Positions 5,887 to 52,853 of a DNA stretch of 64,000 nucleotides are shown one piece after another. Location of the stretch: positions 32,001 to 96,000 of the IMG/VR virus record IMGVR_UViG_3300033066_001396, one strand, 5' to 3'. The position numbers were made by a program, and so were the translations under genes. The notes below the pieces were generated by a model. That model was not told the origin of the DNA. It did no database searches and saw only the letters and a list, made by a program, of their open reading frames with translations. Source of the stretch: a virus. Taxonomy: Duplodnaviria > Caudoviricetes. Position 1 is the first letter of the stretch, and every line of letters starts with the position of its first letter.

Positions 5887-6153
5887 TTAAAGCTTCAATA
5901 TAACGATTCCTCGCTTATTTGCAAGGATAAGGATGTTAATGTTTAACTGATCCAGGGTTTGGCCGGTTTTTTCAACACATAAGCTGACAAATCTTTTTTT
6001 AAGAGCGGCTGGCTTATCGTATTCTATTACGTAAGTATCTCCTGGGCGCATACGCTCAACATTCGGCCACAGGTCCTCTTTTTTCATCTGAAAATGAGGG
6101 GATCGGGTTGAATGATTGAATTTTATGTCTTTTTCTATTTTAAAGTCAATCAT
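5887..6153 (-). CDS. small putative DNA-binding protein
   Basis: ERMRPGDTY resembles ERMGYGDSV of 37143-37499; TATATTTG box at 6237-6244. Confidence 0.5.
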   Translation of the reverse strand: MIDFKIEKDIKFNHSTRSPHFQMKKEDLWPNVERMRPGDTYVIEYDKPAALKKRFVSLCVEKTGQTLDQLNINILILANKRGIVILKL

Positions 6154-6309
6154 ATTTAAAAAATCTTGGTGATATCTGTTTCAATACCACCAAGTCATGA
6201 CCAAATTTAATGCTTAAAATTTAATACTTACAGGTACAAATATAATAAAAAAAGGTATGACGAACTCGCCATACCCATCCAAAAATTACTAATCACAAAA
6301 AAATGTCTT

Positions 6310-6335
6310 AAAAAAGGCGGCATTGCACCGCCTTT
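6310..6335 (-). terminator. intrinsic terminator
   Basis: aaaggcgg/ccgccttt stem with T-run on minus strand after the 6368-7042 gene. Confidence 0.65.
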
Positions 6336-6367
6336 CGGGGATCGTTATCCCCCGCCAGTAGTAGGTT

Positions 6368-7042
6368 TTATTTTTGAGGCGAAGTAATGACTATACCTGC
6401 CCTGAATTGACTTTGAACTGACTTGGTAAAAGGAGTGTTGTATTCGGCTAATAGCCCTAGTGCGCCAGAGATAGGTACAATCAATGTACTTTCAAGCGCC
6501 GCAAAGTTCTTCATATCCAGGTTATGCATAACATAAACCGGCGTAAAGCTCAGCGTAACCGGATAACCGCTTTCAACAACTTTCTTGGCAAAATCTATCC
6601 CAGCAAAGATCTTTGTCTCCTGGGGAGTAAAGCTTGTTGCTCCTGGTAATAGTTTATAAGCCAGACCGCCATGTAATACTGTTTCTATTGCCCCGCTACC
6701 AATGACCTTATAAGGGTACACACCTATGGAAATTCCTTTATCTCCATTCAAAAATCCTCCAAGGCCTTGTCCGAAATCGATATTAACATTGCTCACAATA
6801 GGCAGCTTTAACCCGCCAACAGAGACATCATAGATAATCTTTCCGGACAATAAAATATTATCCTTTAATCCGTCTGTGTGGTCATTGAAGGCTGTGGTAA
6901 GTGTCGATCCAAGCCACAGGCTGTGGACAGATACGCTTTTGACCAGTTCCGGTCGCTCCCTGTTAAAAATAGCATATGGCGCCTGGGCAAAGGTCGTTGC
7001 CAGCACCAATAACATAGGTATTAGTAAACTTAATCTTTTCAT
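6368..7042 (-). CDS. exported beta-strand-rich protein (possible outer-membrane protein)
   Basis: Signal peptide MKRLSLLIPMLLVLATTFAQ; alternating hydrophobic strands; own promoter and terminator. Confidence 0.7.
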   Translation of the reverse strand: MKRLSLLIPMLLVLATTFAQAPYAIFNRERPELVKSVSVHSLWLGSTLTTAFNDHTDGLKDNILLSGKIIYDVSVGGLKLPIVSNVNIDFGQGLGGFLNGDKGISIGVYPYKVIGSGAIETVLHGGLAYKLLPGATSFTPQETKIFAGIDFAKKVVESGYPVTLSFTPVYVMHNLDMKNFAALESTLIVPISGALGLLAEYNTPFTKSVQSQFRAGIVITSPQK

Positions 7043-10008: not shown

Positions 10009-10084
10009 TGCGGAATGGAGAAGTTGGTATCTCGTAGGGCTCATACCTCTAAGATCGGTGGTTCAAGTCCATCTTCCGCTACCA
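10009..10084 (+). tRNA. tRNA-Met(CAT), initiator-like
   Basis: Cloverleaf: TGCGGAA/TTCCGCT acceptor with 1:72 mismatch, anticodon loop CTCATAC, GGTTCAAGTCC T-arm, encoded CCA. Confidence 0.92.
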
Positions 10085-30741: not shown

Positions 30742-32343
30742 ATGTTTGGAATTGATTTTTATCCAACTCCTCCAGATGTCATTGATATGATGATAGACAT
30801 ACCAATACGGGGAAAAACGATTTTGGAGCCCTCGGCCGGGCGTGGAGATATAGTGGACTATCTGTTAGCCCAGGGAGCTAAAAACGTGCTGGCCGCAGAA
30901 ATAGACCCATCACTAAGGACTATTCTAAAAACCAAAGCCGAACTTGTGGCCATAGATTTTTTGGATCTTAAAGCGGAGCGCATTTCGCATATCGATGCTA
31001 TTATCATGAATCCGCCATTTAGTCGGGCCGCTGAACATATTTTGCACGCCTGGGCAATAGCACCGCCAGGCACACAAATACGGGCATTGCTCAACATGGC
31101 AACAATTAAAAACACATATAGCCAGGCCCGAGTCGATTTAACTACAATTATAGAAGAAAACGGATCGGTTGTATCATTGGGCAATGTGTTCAATAAAGCA
31201 GACCGGCCCACAGAAGTAGAGGTAGGCCTGGTAAGACTTAAAAAACCTGGAGAATCAGCAACTCAGGAATTTGAGGGCTTTTTTATGGATGAGGATATAG
31301 AGGCCCAAGGCGACGGCCTAATGCCTTATAACGTTGTCCGGGACATTGTAAATCGATACGTAGAGGCCGTGAAAATATTTGATCTGCAACTGGAACAGGG
31401 GGTGAGACTCAACAGTATACTAAAAGGTTTTTATGGTCATGAGTTAGGATTGCAGGTAACCCAGGAAGGCCGGGCAAAATCTAAAAATGAGTTTAAAAAA
31501 GATTTACAGCGTGACGCCTGGAAGTATATTTTCGATAAACTGGATTTAAGCAAATATACTACCAGGGGAGTAATGAATGATATTAATAAATTCATTGAAC
31601 AACAGACCGAAGTTCCTTTCACCATGCGAAATATATATTGGATGCTGTCAATAGTCAGAGGCACCACCGGATCCAGAATGGATAAGGCACTGTTAGAGGT
31701 ATTCGAAAAACTTATATCCATGTCCTATGATGGAGAAAACAAATACTATCCCGATGGCCGTTGGAAAACCAATAGCCACTACCTGGTAAATGAAACATTT
31801 ATTATTCCACGCATGGCCGAGACCGATCGATGGCATAAGGGCAATAAAATACAGCAAAATTATGGGGGGTATTGGGATTACATTGAAGATCTTGTAAAGG
31901 CCCTTTGTTTTATCACCGGTGACAAATACGAATCCTTTGGCACACTATCAAATACCATAAGATACGAGTATAAGATTAGAACTGCCGATACTGTTAAATA
32001 TGCCACGGGACGGGAATTCTATGCCGGAGCGTTGGCTATTGAAAAAGAGCTATATGAAAAGGGAATAGCTTTTAAAACCGAGCAGTTTTTACCGGAGTAT
32101 GGGCAATGGTTTACCTGGGCTTACTTTGAAGTAAAAGCATTTAAAAAGGGTACCATGCATTTTAGATTCAAGGATAAAGAGATATGGGCAATGTTTAATA
32201 AACATATAGCCAGAATCAAAGGATACCCGTTATTCGAACACAGGCCAAAAGGGACCAGAGAACAGCAACGCACGAACAAAGAGCAGCAGATATACAAGGA
32301 TCAAACTATTTTATTCAACATTAAACAAGAAGCAGCTTTATGA
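30742..32343 (+). CDS. N6-adenine DNA methyltransferase with DUF4942-like C-terminus
   Basis: DFYPTP, ILEPSAGRG, IIMNPPF; WKTNSHY, YFEVKAFKKGTMHFRFKD. Confidence 0.9.
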   Translation: MFGIDFYPTPPDVIDMMIDIPIRGKTILEPSAGRGDIVDYLLAQGAKNVLAAEIDPSLRTILKTKAELVAIDFLDLKAERISHIDAIIMNPPFSRAAEHILHAWAIAPPGTQIRALLNMATIKNTYSQARVDLTTIIEENGSVVSLGNVFNKADRPTEVEVGLVRLKKPGESATQEFEGFFMDEDIEAQGDGLMPYNVVRDIVNRYVEAVKIFDLQLEQGVRLNSILKGFYGHELGLQVTQEGRAKSKNEFKKDLQRDAWKYIFDKLDLSKYTTRGVMNDINKFIEQQTEVPFTMRNIYWMLSIVRGTTGSRMDKALLEVFEKLISMSYDGENKYYPDGRWKTNSHYLVNETFIIPRMAETDRWHKGNKIQQNYGGYWDYIEDLVKALCFITGDKYESFGTLSNTIRYEYKIRTADTVKYATGREFYAGALAIEKELYEKGIAFKTEQFLPEYGQWFTWAYFEVKAFKKGTMHFRFKDKEIWAMFNKHIARIKGYPLFEHRPKGTREQQRTNKEQQIYKDQTILFNIKQEAAL

Positions 32344-32699: not shown

Positions 32700-32927
32700 A
32701 TGGCAAACAAATTAACATTAGATCAACAGAGGGAAGCATTAAACAACGCATTAAAGAGCTTCAATTTTCCTGAAAAATATTTTATTCATTTGACCGCTCC
32801 AAAGTTCGTAATTGCAACATCAAATAAAAATGGCGGGATTAACACACATAGCTCTTTCATGAGCTATGAACAGATGAACTATTTCCTTGTAGGATATAAT
32901 TTAGCACTTATTAAACCTTTTAAATAA
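32700..32927 (+). CDS. hypothetical protein
   Basis: Co-oriented ORF. Confidence 0.6.
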   Translation: MANKLTLDQQREALNNALKSFNFPEKYFIHLTAPKFVIATSNKNGGINTHSSFMSYEQMNYFLVGYNLALIKPFK

Positions 32928-32936
32928 AAAATTATC

Positions 32937-33296
32937 ATGGAAATAGAAGATGATAAGTTTTTGTCCGAAGAACAATTCGAGGCAAACAAAAAAAATATTG
33001 GAGAGGCATTAAAATTGCTCGAAGAAACAACCTACGGAGGTCAACTGAACAGTATGCTTTTTATAAGCCTAAGTACCACCGAAAAGATGTATAAAGCATC
33101 AATCCAGGGGGAATTAGCAAAGACATCAGAGGGCCAGGTTACTATATTTGGACGAGGAACAAACCAATCGATTGAAACCCTTATTATAAATCTCATGCAA
33201 AAACATGATGGTATGTATAGAATAATTCATTCGGCATTGGCTAAATATATTGCCTATAACATAGCAACCAATATCAAACAACGAAGAGAAAACTAA
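32937..33296 (+). CDS. hypothetical protein
   Basis: Co-oriented ORF. Confidence 0.6.
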   Translation: MEIEDDKFLSEEQFEANKKNIGEALKLLEETTYGGQLNSMLFISLSTTEKMYKASIQGELAKTSEGQVTIFGRGTNQSIETLIINLMQKHDGMYRIIHSALAKYIAYNIATNIKQRREN

Positions 33297-33323: not shown

Positions 33324-34250
33324 ATGAATACAATGACAGCTAGTATTAATCCGATCGCTGACCTGGTAAAAGTAACTTATCCAGGCCAAGACCCTGTCCG
33401 ACGCCAATACCGTGAGGGCTACGAGCACTATATGAACATTATGCCGGTACTTGAAGACAATGATCCGGATCTGCCGCACAAAATTGATTATGCCAGAAAC
33501 ATTGTCCAATCCCTGGCCTCATCATTAAAACAACATATTTGGATAACTGCTAATCAGCCCAGGGAGTTTGATCGAACTATTATTGCAATAGAGCCCCGAA
33601 CCATTGACAAAGAAGGCGCTGAGCTTGTTGTGGCACGATGGGGAAAAGGATTTAGCAGCCCGGTACATGGCCACGCCAGTGGTTACTTGCACGAAGAAAT
33701 CCTTTACGGTAAGATGTTAGTAAACACCTATAAGTTAACTCCAAACTCGAATATCGTTCGTCCCTGGGCAACAGAGATCGTTGGAGAGGGCACCTTTGCC
33801 TCAGTATACAACAAAACCGACACCTCCCACCAATTTAAACGCCAGGCATTAATTCATAATTTCAGGGCCTTGACACCAGCGGCCTCACTGCATTTCCTTC
33901 CTGAACATACCAGGGATGGCCGGGACAACACCTTTGTTGTGTCAAGATTTGAGGAATGGTATGATTTGCGAGGCCATTTACAAAGAATAACCAGTCAGGA
34001 GGCCATGTATTCTGCACCTGGAACAGTAATATTAGTCCGAAGCAATAATGTGCCGGAATATGGAGATCATTACATATACATTACAGGCGCACCAGTGCAA
34101 AAAGAACACGGCATAAGGCCCCAGGATCAACCAATAGAGGCTCCGCTTACCAAAAGAATACTTGATGAGTATCATCCGGAGCAAGGCCTAATACTTTTAA
34201 AACTTGACAAGGAAACAACCAATCACTTTGTTAAATTTCATGGATTATGA
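33324..34250 (+). CDS. cysteine-dioxygenase-like cupin with extra C-terminal domain
   Basis: LVVARWGKGFSSPVHGH...ILYGKM..NTY...IHNF...AASLHF matches the CDO W..G..S..HxH / H / SLH pattern. Confidence 0.75.
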   Translation: MNTMTASINPIADLVKVTYPGQDPVRRQYREGYEHYMNIMPVLEDNDPDLPHKIDYARNIVQSLASSLKQHIWITANQPREFDRTIIAIEPRTIDKEGAELVVARWGKGFSSPVHGHASGYLHEEILYGKMLVNTYKLTPNSNIVRPWATEIVGEGTFASVYNKTDTSHQFKRQALIHNFRALTPAASLHFLPEHTRDGRDNTFVVSRFEEWYDLRGHLQRITSQEAMYSAPGTVILVRSNNVPEYGDHYIYITGAPVQKEHGIRPQDQPIEAPLTKRILDEYHPEQGLILLKLDKETTNHFVKFHGL

Positions 34251-34265
34251 AAAGACATTAAAAAA

Positions 34266-34520
34266 ATGAAAGTAGTATCAATTCAAGCAGAACCACCGCT
34301 TATTGGGCATGTGTTAGCGGCTGGCGATTTCATTTCGTCAAATGTTCAAAAACCGCCATTTAAAACTATTGTTGAAACATACACTCCTTTTGGATATGCT
34401 AATAAGGCGATGTTTCACGAGAATGAAAATGACGGATACGATTTTAAAAATGAAAAGCCAATGGTTACACATTTTATAGATGATTTTGAAGCGGAAGTTT
34501 TATGGCGGTTACCCCAATAA
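34266..34520 (+). CDS. hypothetical protein, probably cassette-derived
   Basis: N-terminus EPPLIGHVLAAG spans a GTTAGCG half-site at 34313. Confidence 0.6.
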   Translation: MKVVSIQAEPPLIGHVLAAGDFISSNVQKPPFKTIVETYTPFGYANKAMFHENENDGYDFKNEKPMVTHFIDDFEAEVLWRLPQ

Positions 34521-34558
34521 TTTTGGTTTTTTTCTTTTAAAAACTACTCAAATCCAAC

Positions 34559-35449
34559 ATGATAGAACAAATCCTTAATATTTTCCAGGGATTCAGGATG
34601 ACCCCCACGCCTTTAGATCAGTATGAGTCTAAGGGCAAAGAAATCCTGGGCAACAAAATTGCCGGTTATGTGTCAGATAATAAGCCCTTGCGCTTTGTGA
34701 TGCTAGGCTTCCCATTCAAGTCAACCAACCACAGGGACAAGGTACTGGGATCAGATACCGACCTGGGCGAAGATCTTACAATCAAAAACTTTGCGCTTTT
34801 CAACCAACAGATACAAACATCCTATAAGCCAGGTATTGTGCTAAACATGGTATCTGACGGCTTTGTGTTTAATGATATCCTGGGAGTATCGCCGGCAGAG
34901 GTAGAAGCCTATAAAGAACAGTCGATGGATCTAACCACAGCTCACCAGGCACCGGTACAATGGTTTGATTTGCGGGATTTTTACCGGACCACATTAAGCC
35001 AGGGCCGGGAGCAACTAACGGAACATTTCGGGATTACTCCGGAGAAGCTTGAACATGAGATATTGTTTAATCCCGATGTCAACTTTCTATACCGTGGTAT
35101 GATCCGGTTTATGGAAGAGGAATTGGCACCACAAAACCACCCGAGCCGAAACCAACTTCAGAAGGCTGCCAAGAAGCTAACCAGGGAAATGATGTTTAGA
35201 AACGAGGCTTATTCTAACCTGGTAAAAGAAGAGTTCAAGGACTGCATCAGGCTATCCATGCATCCCTCTGTCAATTCAGGAGCAAAGTATAGCTTCCAGC
35301 TTATCCCAGGGGCCAGACATAGTGCCTGGCACAGCTCAATAGCACTGTACAATGATGGGAGAATTGAAACAATTCACCGAAAAGACGCCGAACAAAAAGG
35401 AATGAAATTGGTTTATAAAAATAACAATCCATATAACTTTATAGAATGA
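34559..35449 (+). CDS. PvcA/Dit1/IsnA-family isocyanide (isonitrile) synthase
   Basis: FVMLGFPFKSTN..DKVLG..TDLGE...Y.PG....VSDGFVFNDILGV...V.AY; IRLSMHP; AWH. Confidence 0.88.
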   Translation: MIEQILNIFQGFRMTPTPLDQYESKGKEILGNKIAGYVSDNKPLRFVMLGFPFKSTNHRDKVLGSDTDLGEDLTIKNFALFNQQIQTSYKPGIVLNMVSDGFVFNDILGVSPAEVEAYKEQSMDLTTAHQAPVQWFDLRDFYRTTLSQGREQLTEHFGITPEKLEHEILFNPDVNFLYRGMIRFMEEELAPQNHPSRNQLQKAAKKLTREMMFRNEAYSNLVKEEFKDCIRLSMHPSVNSGAKYSFQLIPGARHSAWHSSIALYNDGRIETIHRKDAEQKGMKLVYKNNNPYNFIE

Positions 35450-35757
35450 AAATAGGGGAAGCAAAACTGAGATACAATCATAAGGGAGAGATAGATAGCG
35501 CAACGTTCTTTCCAGTAGACGCATTTATGGTGCCACATGAAACACTCCTGGAATTATCCAATAGCCAGGATGAGGAATCTATTAAGGCGAACGCCAATAT
35601 GGTACTGGCATCCTATTTCTCTAAGATTAACGATATCGAACTAGGAGACAGGGACCAGGTTGAAATCAAAACCAAAATCATTAACTGCAACAAGCATTCC
35701 AATGGCATGATATCCCATTGTACGTTACAATTCACCTTAGAGCCCATTACAAAATGA
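35446..35757 (+). CDS. hypothetical protein
   Basis: ATGA-coupled to the isocyanide synthase. Confidence 0.6.
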   Translation: MKIGEAKLRYNHKGEIDSATFFPVDAFMVPHETLLELSNSQDEESIKANANMVLASYFSKINDIELGDRDQVEIKTKIINCNKHSNGMISHCTLQFTLEPITK

Positions 35758-35854: not shown

Positions 35855-36283
35855 ATGAACAACAGATTAAAATTCCTTTTATTGATATTGCTTATTTCCT
35901 GTAACAGCAAAAAGCTAGTGGTAATTGACGGAGACAGTTATATTCTGGACGGTAATAGGATAAGGCTTATAGGAGTAGATTGCCCAGAACTTGGCCAGAC
36001 GTATGGTTATGAGGCCAAAACCCATGTTTGGAATCTATTAAGGGGGGCAAGCCTAAAAGTTACATACACGAACCAAGACCATTATGGCCGGTGGCTTGCA
36101 AATGTAAAAGTTAACGGCGCACCGCTTGACAGCATAATCGTGGTCAATGGCTGGGGATGGGCAGACACCTACAACCATACCTACAACCATAAAAATGAAG
36201 ACCTTATGTACTATGCTAAAGCAAAGAACCGGGGATTGTGGAAATTTGATCCGATCGAACCATATAAATTCAGACGAAGATGA
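35855..36283 (+). CDS. thermonuclease (SNase) family lipoprotein
   Basis: LISC lipobox; VIDGD, IRLIGVDCPE, DHYGRWLA, AKAKNRGLW. Confidence 0.92.
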   Translation: MNNRLKFLLLILLISCNSKKLVVIDGDSYILDGNRIRLIGVDCPELGQTYGYEAKTHVWNLLRGASLKVTYTNQDHYGRWLANVKVNGAPLDSIIVVNGWGWADTYNHTYNHKNEDLMYYAKAKNRGLWKFDPIEPYKFRRR

Positions 36284-40425: not shown

Positions 40426-40895
40426 CATTATTAACACCAGAAAAAGCCAAGTTGCTTCTTGGTGATCCAAACAAGGCAGAGGCAAAAAATTGCGCTCTGT
40501 GGGCAGCACCAACAAACAAGCGCATAGACAATATCCCCGTTAAAATATATATGAATAAGGCAATGATTCCATATTGGAATACTGCTTATCTGGAAATATA
40601 TGATAAGGGCGTTGGATCTTTGATAAAAACTTGGGATGGGTGTTTTAATATGAGACTTATTTACGGAACCAGACAATGGAGCTTGCATGCGTGGGGATTA
40701 GCGTTTGATATAAACGCACAAACCAATAAACAAGGAACAAAAGGAGATATGCCTAAAATAATTGTCGAAATTTTCAAAGAAAATGGTTTTGATTATGGCG
40801 GAGATTTTAAAGGAGCCAGAATTGATCCTATGCACTGGCAGTTAAAAGAAGAATTTTTAACATATTACATAAATAAAACCCGAACATCAAAATGA
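40422..40895 (+). CDS. M15-family peptidoglycan peptidase (endolysin-like)
   Basis: GCFNMR...SLHAWGLAFDIN...GFDYGGDF...DPMHWQ. Confidence 0.92.
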   Translation: MTLLTPEKAKLLLGDPNKAEAKNCALWAAPTNKRIDNIPVKIYMNKAMIPYWNTAYLEIYDKGVGSLIKTWDGCFNMRLIYGTRQWSLHAWGLAFDINAQTNKQGTKGDMPKIIVEIFKENGFDYGGDFKGARIDPMHWQLKEEFLTYYINKTRTSK

Positions 40896-41680
40896 TGATA
40901 AGACAAAGCAAGAATGTTTTTGGTTTTAATAAAGATGGAACTTTTTTTGGGGGGTGGCCTTCTATAAAAGAATGCGCAAGGAGCCTTAAAAGAGAGCCAT
41001 CTACTGTGCGAGAGGCGATTAACAAAAGAAATTTTTGTAACGGATTGGTGCTTCAGTTTATACCAGAGTTCATGCCTATTGAAAAGCGAATAAGGTGCAG
41101 ATCTGGTGTTCCTCCCAAAAAAAACGCCAAGGTTGTTCCAGACGAAAATACAGTTGTAGTGCCAGATACAAATGGATATTATTATGTCACCAGAGATGGC
41201 AGGATAATTAATATGTATGGTAGAGAATTACAGCAAAAAACTACTCTTTGGTGTGAATACTTAACCGTGAATCTTCAAATAAATAAAAGAAAAACGCACA
41301 GGAGTGTTCATAGAATAGTCGCACAGGCCTTTTTGTCAAATCCAGAAAACAAATCACAAGTCAATCATGACGATGGAAATAAAAAAAATAATAATATAAG
41401 CAACTTGGGGTGGATGACACCAAAAGAAAACATGAAACATGCTATTGATAAGGGTTTGTATAAACGATACAATAATCAAACATACAAGGGTAAATTTGGC
41501 AAGGATCACAATAGGTCATTGGCCGTTATCTGTAAAAACACAGGTAATGTGTACGGAAGCATTTCTGAGGCGTCAAGAGAATTAAAAATTAGTATTTCAA
41601 CAATTCATTATTCGATATCTAAAAAAGTTCCATTAAAAAATGGACTGGAGTTTTCTTATCACCAAAAGTTGATCAAATGA
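40892..41680 (+). CDS. HNH homing endonuclease with NUMOD-type DNA-binding modules
   Basis: VHRIVAQAFLSNPENKSQVNHDDGNKKNNNISNLGW; SIKECAR and YGSISEASREL modules. Confidence 0.92.
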   Translation: MMIRQSKNVFGFNKDGTFFGGWPSIKECARSLKREPSTVREAINKRNFCNGLVLQFIPEFMPIEKRIRCRSGVPPKKNAKVVPDENTVVVPDTNGYYYVTRDGRIINMYGRELQQKTTLWCEYLTVNLQINKRKTHRSVHRIVAQAFLSNPENKSQVNHDDGNKKNNNISNLGWMTPKENMKHAIDKGLYKRYNNQTYKGKFGKDHNRSLAVICKNTGNVYGSISEASRELKISISTIHYSISKKVPLKNGLEFSYHQKLIK

Positions 41681-52776: not shown

Positions 52777-52853
52777 GGTGGCTGTAGTTCAGTTGGTAGA
52801 ATATCAGATTGTGGTTCTGAGGGTCGAGAGTTCAAACCTCTCCAGCCACCCCA
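52777..52853 (+). tRNA. tRNA-His(GTG)
   Basis: G-1:C73, GTGGCTG/CAGCCAC acceptor, TCAGA-TTGTGGT-TCTGA anticodon arm, encoded CCA. Confidence 0.95.

Follow-up and report, generated by a model that had tools for sequence, protein, structure and literature searches.

Can a phage make an isonitrile of its own? The question is raised by positions 33324-35757 of a 64,000-nt stretch of DNA (the window), which is part of a 124,566-bp virus record from an uncultured wastewater phage [IMG/VR IMGVR_UViG_3300033066_001396, positions 32,001 to 96,000; CheckV completeness ~80%]. Four open reading frames (ORFs A, B, C and D) lie there, all on one strand, and the original prediction, made from the sequence alone, saw in them a pairing of a cupin (ORF A) with a PvcA/Dit1-type synthase (ORF C). 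Isonitriles, a rare and reactive class of metal ligand, have roles as antibiotics, in virulence and in the scavenging of metals. To our knowledge, the known IsnA-type pathways are all cellular, and nearly all have a 2-oxoglutarate oxygenase beside the synthase. We put the probability at about 55% that the locus is a phage auxiliary biosynthetic module of three conserved genes, in which an IsnA/PvcA-type synthase works with a small additional domain (here the C-terminal domain, CTD, of ORF A), with ORF D and usually with a thiol-dioxygenase-like cupin to make an isonitrile.

The synthase can be recognized in ORF C (34559-35449, + strand, 296 aa). A hidden Markov model (HMM) search against Pfam DIT1_PvcA (PF05141), which had been suggested as a check, returned an E-value of 8e-64 and 216.2 bits (cut-off 26.4), and the match covers profile positions 2-272 of 273. 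Among solved structures, the isonitrile synthases 9dhm/9dh4 are matched at E 5e-29 and PvcA (3e59, PDB sequence comparison) at E 1.6e-26, and the motifs FPxKSxN..KVLG, SDGxVFxD, IRLSxHP and WH of ORF C, which the original prediction had already quoted, align with those of both. Across 15 phage and 4 cellular sequences, 22 residues are invariant, including K54, S55, K61, D100, G101, R231, S233, H235, W257 and H258 of ORF C, and this protein retains every one of them. Specific to its clade, in turn, are positions N215, E216, F246, S255, T271 and H273. Judged by its sequence, ORF C is a genuine full-length member of the DIT1_PvcA/IsnA-type isonitrile synthase family, carried by a phage.

The company that this synthase keeps is not the usual one. 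IsnA/PvcA/AmbI1-type synthases and their IsnB/PvcB partners (Fe/2-oxoglutarate enzymes of the TauD family) act in the rhabduscin, paerucumarin and hapalindole pathways. Like those synthases, ORF C is full length and has the same motifs, and chemistry on an amine and ribulose-5-phosphate would be expected of it; unlike them, the phage protein is only ~27% identical, belongs to a phage-dominated clade of its own, has no TauD partner and is linked to the CTD, to ORF D and usually to a CDO-like cupin. In a maximum-likelihood tree, the phage synthases form one group (support 84/97) apart from the TauD-linked cellular genes, and the cupin-less and fused forms described below are nested within it. 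The expectation that the usual TauD partner would be missing was borne out: the TauD family (PF02668) has no match at E 0.1 anywhere in the 124.6 kb of the phage record (completeness ~80%), yet a TauD-family gene lies directly downstream of the synthase in three of four true cellular PF05141 loci. For these controls, PF05141 was found in five of 401 sampled Pseudomonadota genomes, one of which is a bin of phage contigs.

ORF A (33324-34250, + strand, 308 aa) supplies the partner. Its AlphaFold (AF2) model, built from an alignment of 31 family members, has a pLDDT of 94.4 and contains a cupin barrel at residues ~30-207, within the N-terminal domain (residues 1-204; 33324..33935, + strand), and the top structural matches of this barrel are all thiol dioxygenases. 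With VIA, Bacillus subtilis CDO (4qm8) is matched with a Z of 12.5 (root-mean-square deviation 3.1, 146 aligned), followed by 3-mercaptopropionate dioxygenase (MDO, 6xb9; 12.1), mercaptosuccinate dioxygenase (11.5), rat CDO (11.2) and PCO4/ADO (10.7), while generic cupins reach at most 9.4; Foldseek also returns thiol dioxygenases, at E 2e-8. Sequence profiles point the same way. The profile of the ORF A family (31 members) gives a weak match to CDO in the PDB at motif 1 (E 0.006), and an hhalign comparison with the bacterial CDO family gives E 1.8e-5, placing R84 on the carboxylate-binding Arg of CDO (the Arg60 position) and H115/H117 on the HxH motif. In a global hhalign alignment, in a region of lower confidence, H178 falls on the third His and S188/H190 on the Ser-His of the catalytic triad. 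Invariant across the 31 sequences are R84, H115, H117, E124, R173, H178, H190 and E194, and no longer fused forms of ORF A (540 aa or more) were found. The models show a thiol-dioxygenase-like cupin fold with a predicted three-His metal site, which agrees with the CDO-like three-His cupin originally proposed. The fold (Z 10.7-12.5) is shared with CDO, 3-mercaptopropionate dioxygenase and ADO/PCO, with which the HxH, the Arg at the Arg60 position and, at lower confidence, the third His and the Ser-His align; unlike these, ORF A adds the invariant E124, R173 and E194 and a fused CTD. We know of no linkage of the thiol dioxygenase family to an isonitrile synthase.

The extra domain that had been noticed in ORF A, the CTD (residues 205-308; 33936..34250, + strand), is small and beta-rich, with no recognizable fold. 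Modelled alone it has a pLDDT of 93.7; against the PDB, VIA reaches a Z of 3.6 at best and Foldseek an E-value of 0.28, and there is no sequence-profile match. A profile search of 1.84 billion representatives returned only 155 proteins: 81 are cupin-CTD, three are cupin-CTD-CTD, about 50 are CTDs on their own (possibly fragments in some cases) and six join the CTD to an unrelated helical N-terminal domain, while direct fusions to the synthase occur both as CTD-C (three) and as C-CTD (one). One of the CTD-C fusions (P0136) is followed by ORF D, with no cupin within 5 kb. The CTD can be regarded as a previously undescribed domain of ~100 residues, and from these architectures it appears to be a mobile partner domain of this synthase subfamily, fused to either enzyme or alone. 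A relationship between the CTD and ORF D was ruled out with hhalign (probability <=0.2%), as was one between ORF D or the cupin and the helical domain of CTD proteins from the candidate phyla radiation (CPR) (probabilities <=0.2%).

Whether these genes belong together can be judged from related loci in genomes, IMG/VR and JGI metagenomes, which were compared with tblastn; the locus counts below cover those with enough sequence, and one locus (L023) was omitted because it looks like a chimeric contig. At 90% identity, relatives of ORF A fall into 195 clusters and those of ORF C into 345. The order A, C, D is found in 15 of 15 informative loci, so the predicted co-occurrence of the cupin and synthase genes across phages holds. 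Most module junctions are 4-nt overlaps or gaps of <40 nt. In this phage the spacing from A to C is 308 nt (the prediction had said about 300) and contains ORF B (34266-34520, + strand, 84 aa); other inserts between A and C are occasional and include other small ORFs and, in two loci (L017 and L020), an extra stand-alone CTD. ORF B has no tblastn match in any related locus and is a variable insert that splits the A-C junction, outside the conserved module. The ORFs upstream (32700-33296) and the nuclease gene downstream are likewise not conserved with the module.

ORF D (35446-35757, + strand, 103 aa) has a different standing. Its start overlaps the stop of ORF C by 4 nt, and in related loci a D homologue (25-43% identity) lies downstream of C, with a gap of -4 to +12 nt in most of them. 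Searches of the PDB by profile and of the ESM Atlas gave no structural match for ORF D, and a complex prediction for C with D gave a median score of 0.14 (mark 0.32), which is evidence neither way. By its conservation ORF D is a third member of the module, which therefore has at least three genes.

Searching IMG/VR with ORF C added five records to the two already known through ORF A. One has cupin-CTD, C and D; another, 96% complete, has A and C-D at opposite ends, which fits circular permutation. In a third (L068, IMGVR_UViG_3300020577_009823), the locus at 5911-6519 holds a 5'-truncated C, in a 203-aa frame that matches only C residues 124-299, followed by D, and the synthase homologue there may be truncated, frameshifted or interrupted. 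The remaining two (41 and 57 kb) encode the CTD as a separate protein together with C and D, and neither contig has a cupin gene anywhere along it. The CTD and D accompany the synthase clade in all examined loci with enough flanking sequence, and with these cupin-less records the conserved core is CTD, C and D, the cupin being frequent but optional. The linkage claimed for a two-gene module of cupin and synthase has stood, but the definition of the module has not, since D is conserved and the cupin is missing from two contigs. Carriers of the module include complete or near-complete genomes of 71-96 kb, one of them a complete 95.6-kb genome with terminal repeats.

The same comparison bears on the view that the genes are morons, carried as passengers and irrelevant to infection, or that the synthase homologue is catalytically dead and serves as a binding protein. 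Few IMG/VR records carry these genes and no cultured-phage record does (in INPHARED, ORF C has no homologue at E 1e-5), and a 251-nt contig (34359-34609) from one wastewater RNA library is all that touches the locus, which does not show transcription. These observations would suit passengers. They are outweighed by the retention of all family-invariant residues, by the hundreds of 90% clusters, by the translational coupling of the genes and by the conservation of sequence and order over very divergent phages: identities of 41-62% for A and C compare with only 28-31% for the large terminases (TerL) of the same phages. We regard a passenger or dead-enzyme explanation as very improbable.

If the module does make an isonitrile, a plausible course can be outlined. 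By homology, ORF C would condense ribulose-5-phosphate with a primary amine, of which an amino acid's alpha-amine is the likeliest candidate; the isonitrile formed may afterwards be hydrolysed to a formamide. The CTD and D would be obligatory accessory parts for docking or substrate delivery, with the CTD perhaps bringing the enzymes together or attaching them to a common substrate. The cupin would be an enzyme that depends on Fe(II) and O2, and R84 and R173 would hold its carboxylate-bearing substrate. Its step would be either to tailor the isonitrile, as a substitute for the absent IsnB/PvcB 2-oxoglutarate oxygenase, or to prepare the amine substrate; since some phages have no cupin, this step would be optional. 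A partial precedent can be found in eukaryotes, where yeast Dit1/Dit2 makes N-formyl-tyrosine for spore-wall dityrosine and isocyanide synthases occur in the fungal xan and crm clusters. There, too, a DIT1_PvcA enzyme is combined with tailoring by something other than TauD and the product may end as a formamide, but the partners are P450s, nonribosomal-peptide-synthetase-like domains or fused dioxygenases, and the systems are eukaryotic and non-viral.

A bolder version of this reading is possible, and we hold it only tentatively: that phages of several lineages encode a self-contained pathway (synthase, adaptor domain, D and optional cupin) making a metal-binding isonitrile during infection, that the cupin performs an Fe/O2 step new to isonitrile pathways, and that the product acts on the metalloenzymes or metal supply of the host or of competitors. 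To name tyrosine or tryptophan as the substrate, or to give the product a role against host metalloenzymes or defences, is speculation. If the bolder version is true, the pathway would yield the first isonitrile natural product to be encoded by a virus; our literature search found no paper on a phage isonitrile synthase or on a cupin partner of an isonitrile synthase. Phage auxiliary chemistry would gain a new class from a conserved viral version with other partners, possibly including a new cupin reaction.

Several results weigh against an isonitrile-making module and have to be set beside it. Compared with the PvcA equivalog (NCBIfam NF045653, L-tyrosine isonitrile synthase), ORF C scores 116.2 bits, far under the cut-off of 600; it is not a PvcA orthologue, so tyrosine specificity cannot be assumed. 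Given this score and the low identity to cellular homologues (~27%), both substrate and product may differ from those of the cellular enzymes. For ORF A, no Pfam family is matched at E 0.1 or better, and thus neither CDO_I (PF05995) nor PCO_ADO (PF07847). The position of the triad Tyr (Tyr157 of rat CDO) is Leu192 in a low-confidence alignment, and no Tyr is invariant among the 31 family sequences; the Cys-Tyr cross-link residues of thiol dioxygenases also appear to be absent. Because the catalytic Tyr is unaligned, the cupin may not be an oxygenase at all, and a three-His cupin with no co-substrate could not simply copy the IsnB reaction. The module also lies among DNA-metabolism genes, a setting that would fit a macromolecular substrate too.

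The cupin evidence can also be read as the sign that the cupin is a thiol dioxygenase proper and takes the first step, for instance by converting cysteine or a related thiol amine to a sulfinate, which the synthase would then turn into an isonitrile, so that the pathway would be one to sulfur-containing isonitriles. All of the best sequence and structure matches of the cupin are indeed thiol dioxygenases, R84 falls on the Arg with which CDO binds the cysteine carboxylate, and Ser188-His190 fall on part of the triad. Leu192 at the position of the triad Tyr and the missing Pfam matches speak the other way, and so do the CTD-C-D contigs, on which there is no cupin and the synthase substrate would therefore be independent of it. 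On balance, a sulfur-first pathway seems distinctly unlikely.

The genomic setting raises another alternative, in which the amine to be modified belongs to a macromolecule or activated precursor instead of a free amino acid (candidates are a DNA base or nucleotide with an amino modification, a glycan amino sugar or a protein N-terminus), the CTD is a recognition domain and the cupin acts on protein-borne groups as ADO and PCO do. In its own record, the module has methyltransferases, nucleases and small ORFs around it, while the structural genes are on the other strand; the record also encodes Sak4-like, DHH and several DNA methyltransferase genes as well as many glycosylation genes. Taking the phage and its relatives together, the surroundings are methyltransferases, nucleases and recombination genes, including SNF2, SSB, PDDEXK, MazG and ThyX-like genes. 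The CTD, found alone, duplicated and fused to either enzyme, resembles a mobile recognition or adaptor domain; the cupin fold matches the protein-acting PCO4 and ADO (Z 10.7); and a related bacterial locus, described below, opens with a sugar epimerase. Against this, the characterized DIT1_PvcA enzymes all, as far as we know, act on free Tyr or Trp, and the genes shown to be linked to the module include no known hypermodification genes. Nor does the CTD have any detectable similarity to known nucleic-acid- or peptide-binding folds, and a conserved N-terminal Cys or Lys, which could mark D as a substrate, is missing from it. We consider modification of a macromolecule unlikely, and an isonitrile made from a small amine, most likely an amino acid, remains our preferred reading.

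Outside phages, the association can be followed into a few metagenome-assembled genomes (MAGs). A Candidatus Peregrinibacteria MAG encodes one helical-CTD protein (P0301), and the locus there starts with an NAD-dependent sugar epimerase and runs through a stand-alone A-type cupin (231 aa, HMM E 2e-47) and a very divergent 422-aa PF05141 protein to the helical-CTD protein, with BipA and a SpoU-type methylase as housekeeping neighbours. Cupin, PvcA-like gene and CTD protein occur together here, so the association is not confined to phages. The C-CTD fusion (P0371), annotated as an isocyanide synthase family protein, is from a Candidatus Pacearchaeota MAG. The newly defined domain accompanies an isonitrile-synthase subfamily not only in phages but also in one MAG of a CPR bacterium and one labelled as DPANN. 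An 8.4-kb Logan contig (L060) encodes a PvcA-like protein of 429 aa, a helical-CTD protein and, after them, an FAD_binding_3 monooxygenase and other flavoenzymes, which is another non-TauD tailoring set for the synthase subfamily.

A search of 185,579 species genomes (GTDB) gave a single match, to a MAG labelled 'uncultured Neisseriaceae', which we rejected as a case of cellular carriage: the module contig has phage neighbours, and the 2.2-Mb bin contains nine crAss-like large terminase matches over several contigs as well as several major-head-protein matches. The bin looks to consist largely of phage contigs, and its taxonomy label is therefore unusable for host inference. A match labelled 'Allocoleopsis' is on a 1.4-kb contig and is uninformative on the host.

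The phage itself can be placed by its own genes. PHROG searches detected a major head protein (phrog_11589, E 2e-23) and TerL (phrog_6681, E 4e-42), the latter missed by the Pfam models Terminase_6N and Terminase_6C. The best cultured match of TerL is Cellulophaga phage phi14:2 (27% identity), followed by crAss-like and Flavobacterium phages (range 25-27%). The record is that of a tailed phage (Caudoviricetes) in the crAss-like/Bacteroidota-phage neighbourhood; with the nearest terminases this distant, a Bacteroidota host can only be inferred. As with other auxiliary genes of crAss-like and Bacteroidota phages, this is a non-essential metabolic module within a large tailed-phage genome. It differs from them in that no PHROG family covers any of ORFs A-D (A, B and D also have no match in Pfam or NCBIfam) and in having no INPHARED homologue of C. 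The stretch with the module is complete in one wastewater run, which may be its source, and in three runs of an independent 2025 study, from which contigs of 8.9 and 7.9 kb match it with one and zero differences, respectively. River, sludge and freshwater runs with only a small share of it were not counted towards habitat. Scanning the module for sigma-70 promoters and terminators gave background levels, and none of the inverted repeats sought around it was convincing.

A few further features of the window can be noted. Directly 3' of ORF D, at 35855-36283 (+), is a staphylococcal-nuclease homologue (Pfam SNase, E 6e-14) whose N-terminus is a lipoprotein-like signal (MNNRLKFLLLILLISC); because of this signal, the phage nuclease may be exported or anchored in the membrane. 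In the arm that carries the module there are also a 533-aa putative methyltransferase with DUF4942 and two HNH endonuclease genes, one with NUMOD1 and one with AP2 (listed spans 30742-32343 (+), 40892-41680 (+) and 25073-25573 (-)), in keeping with a region where mobile and DNA-modifying genes are plentiful. The window also contains a tRNA with a CTA anticodon (amber-suppressor type) at 18342-18414 (+), a tRNA-Met at 10009-10084 and a tRNA-His at 52778-52853.

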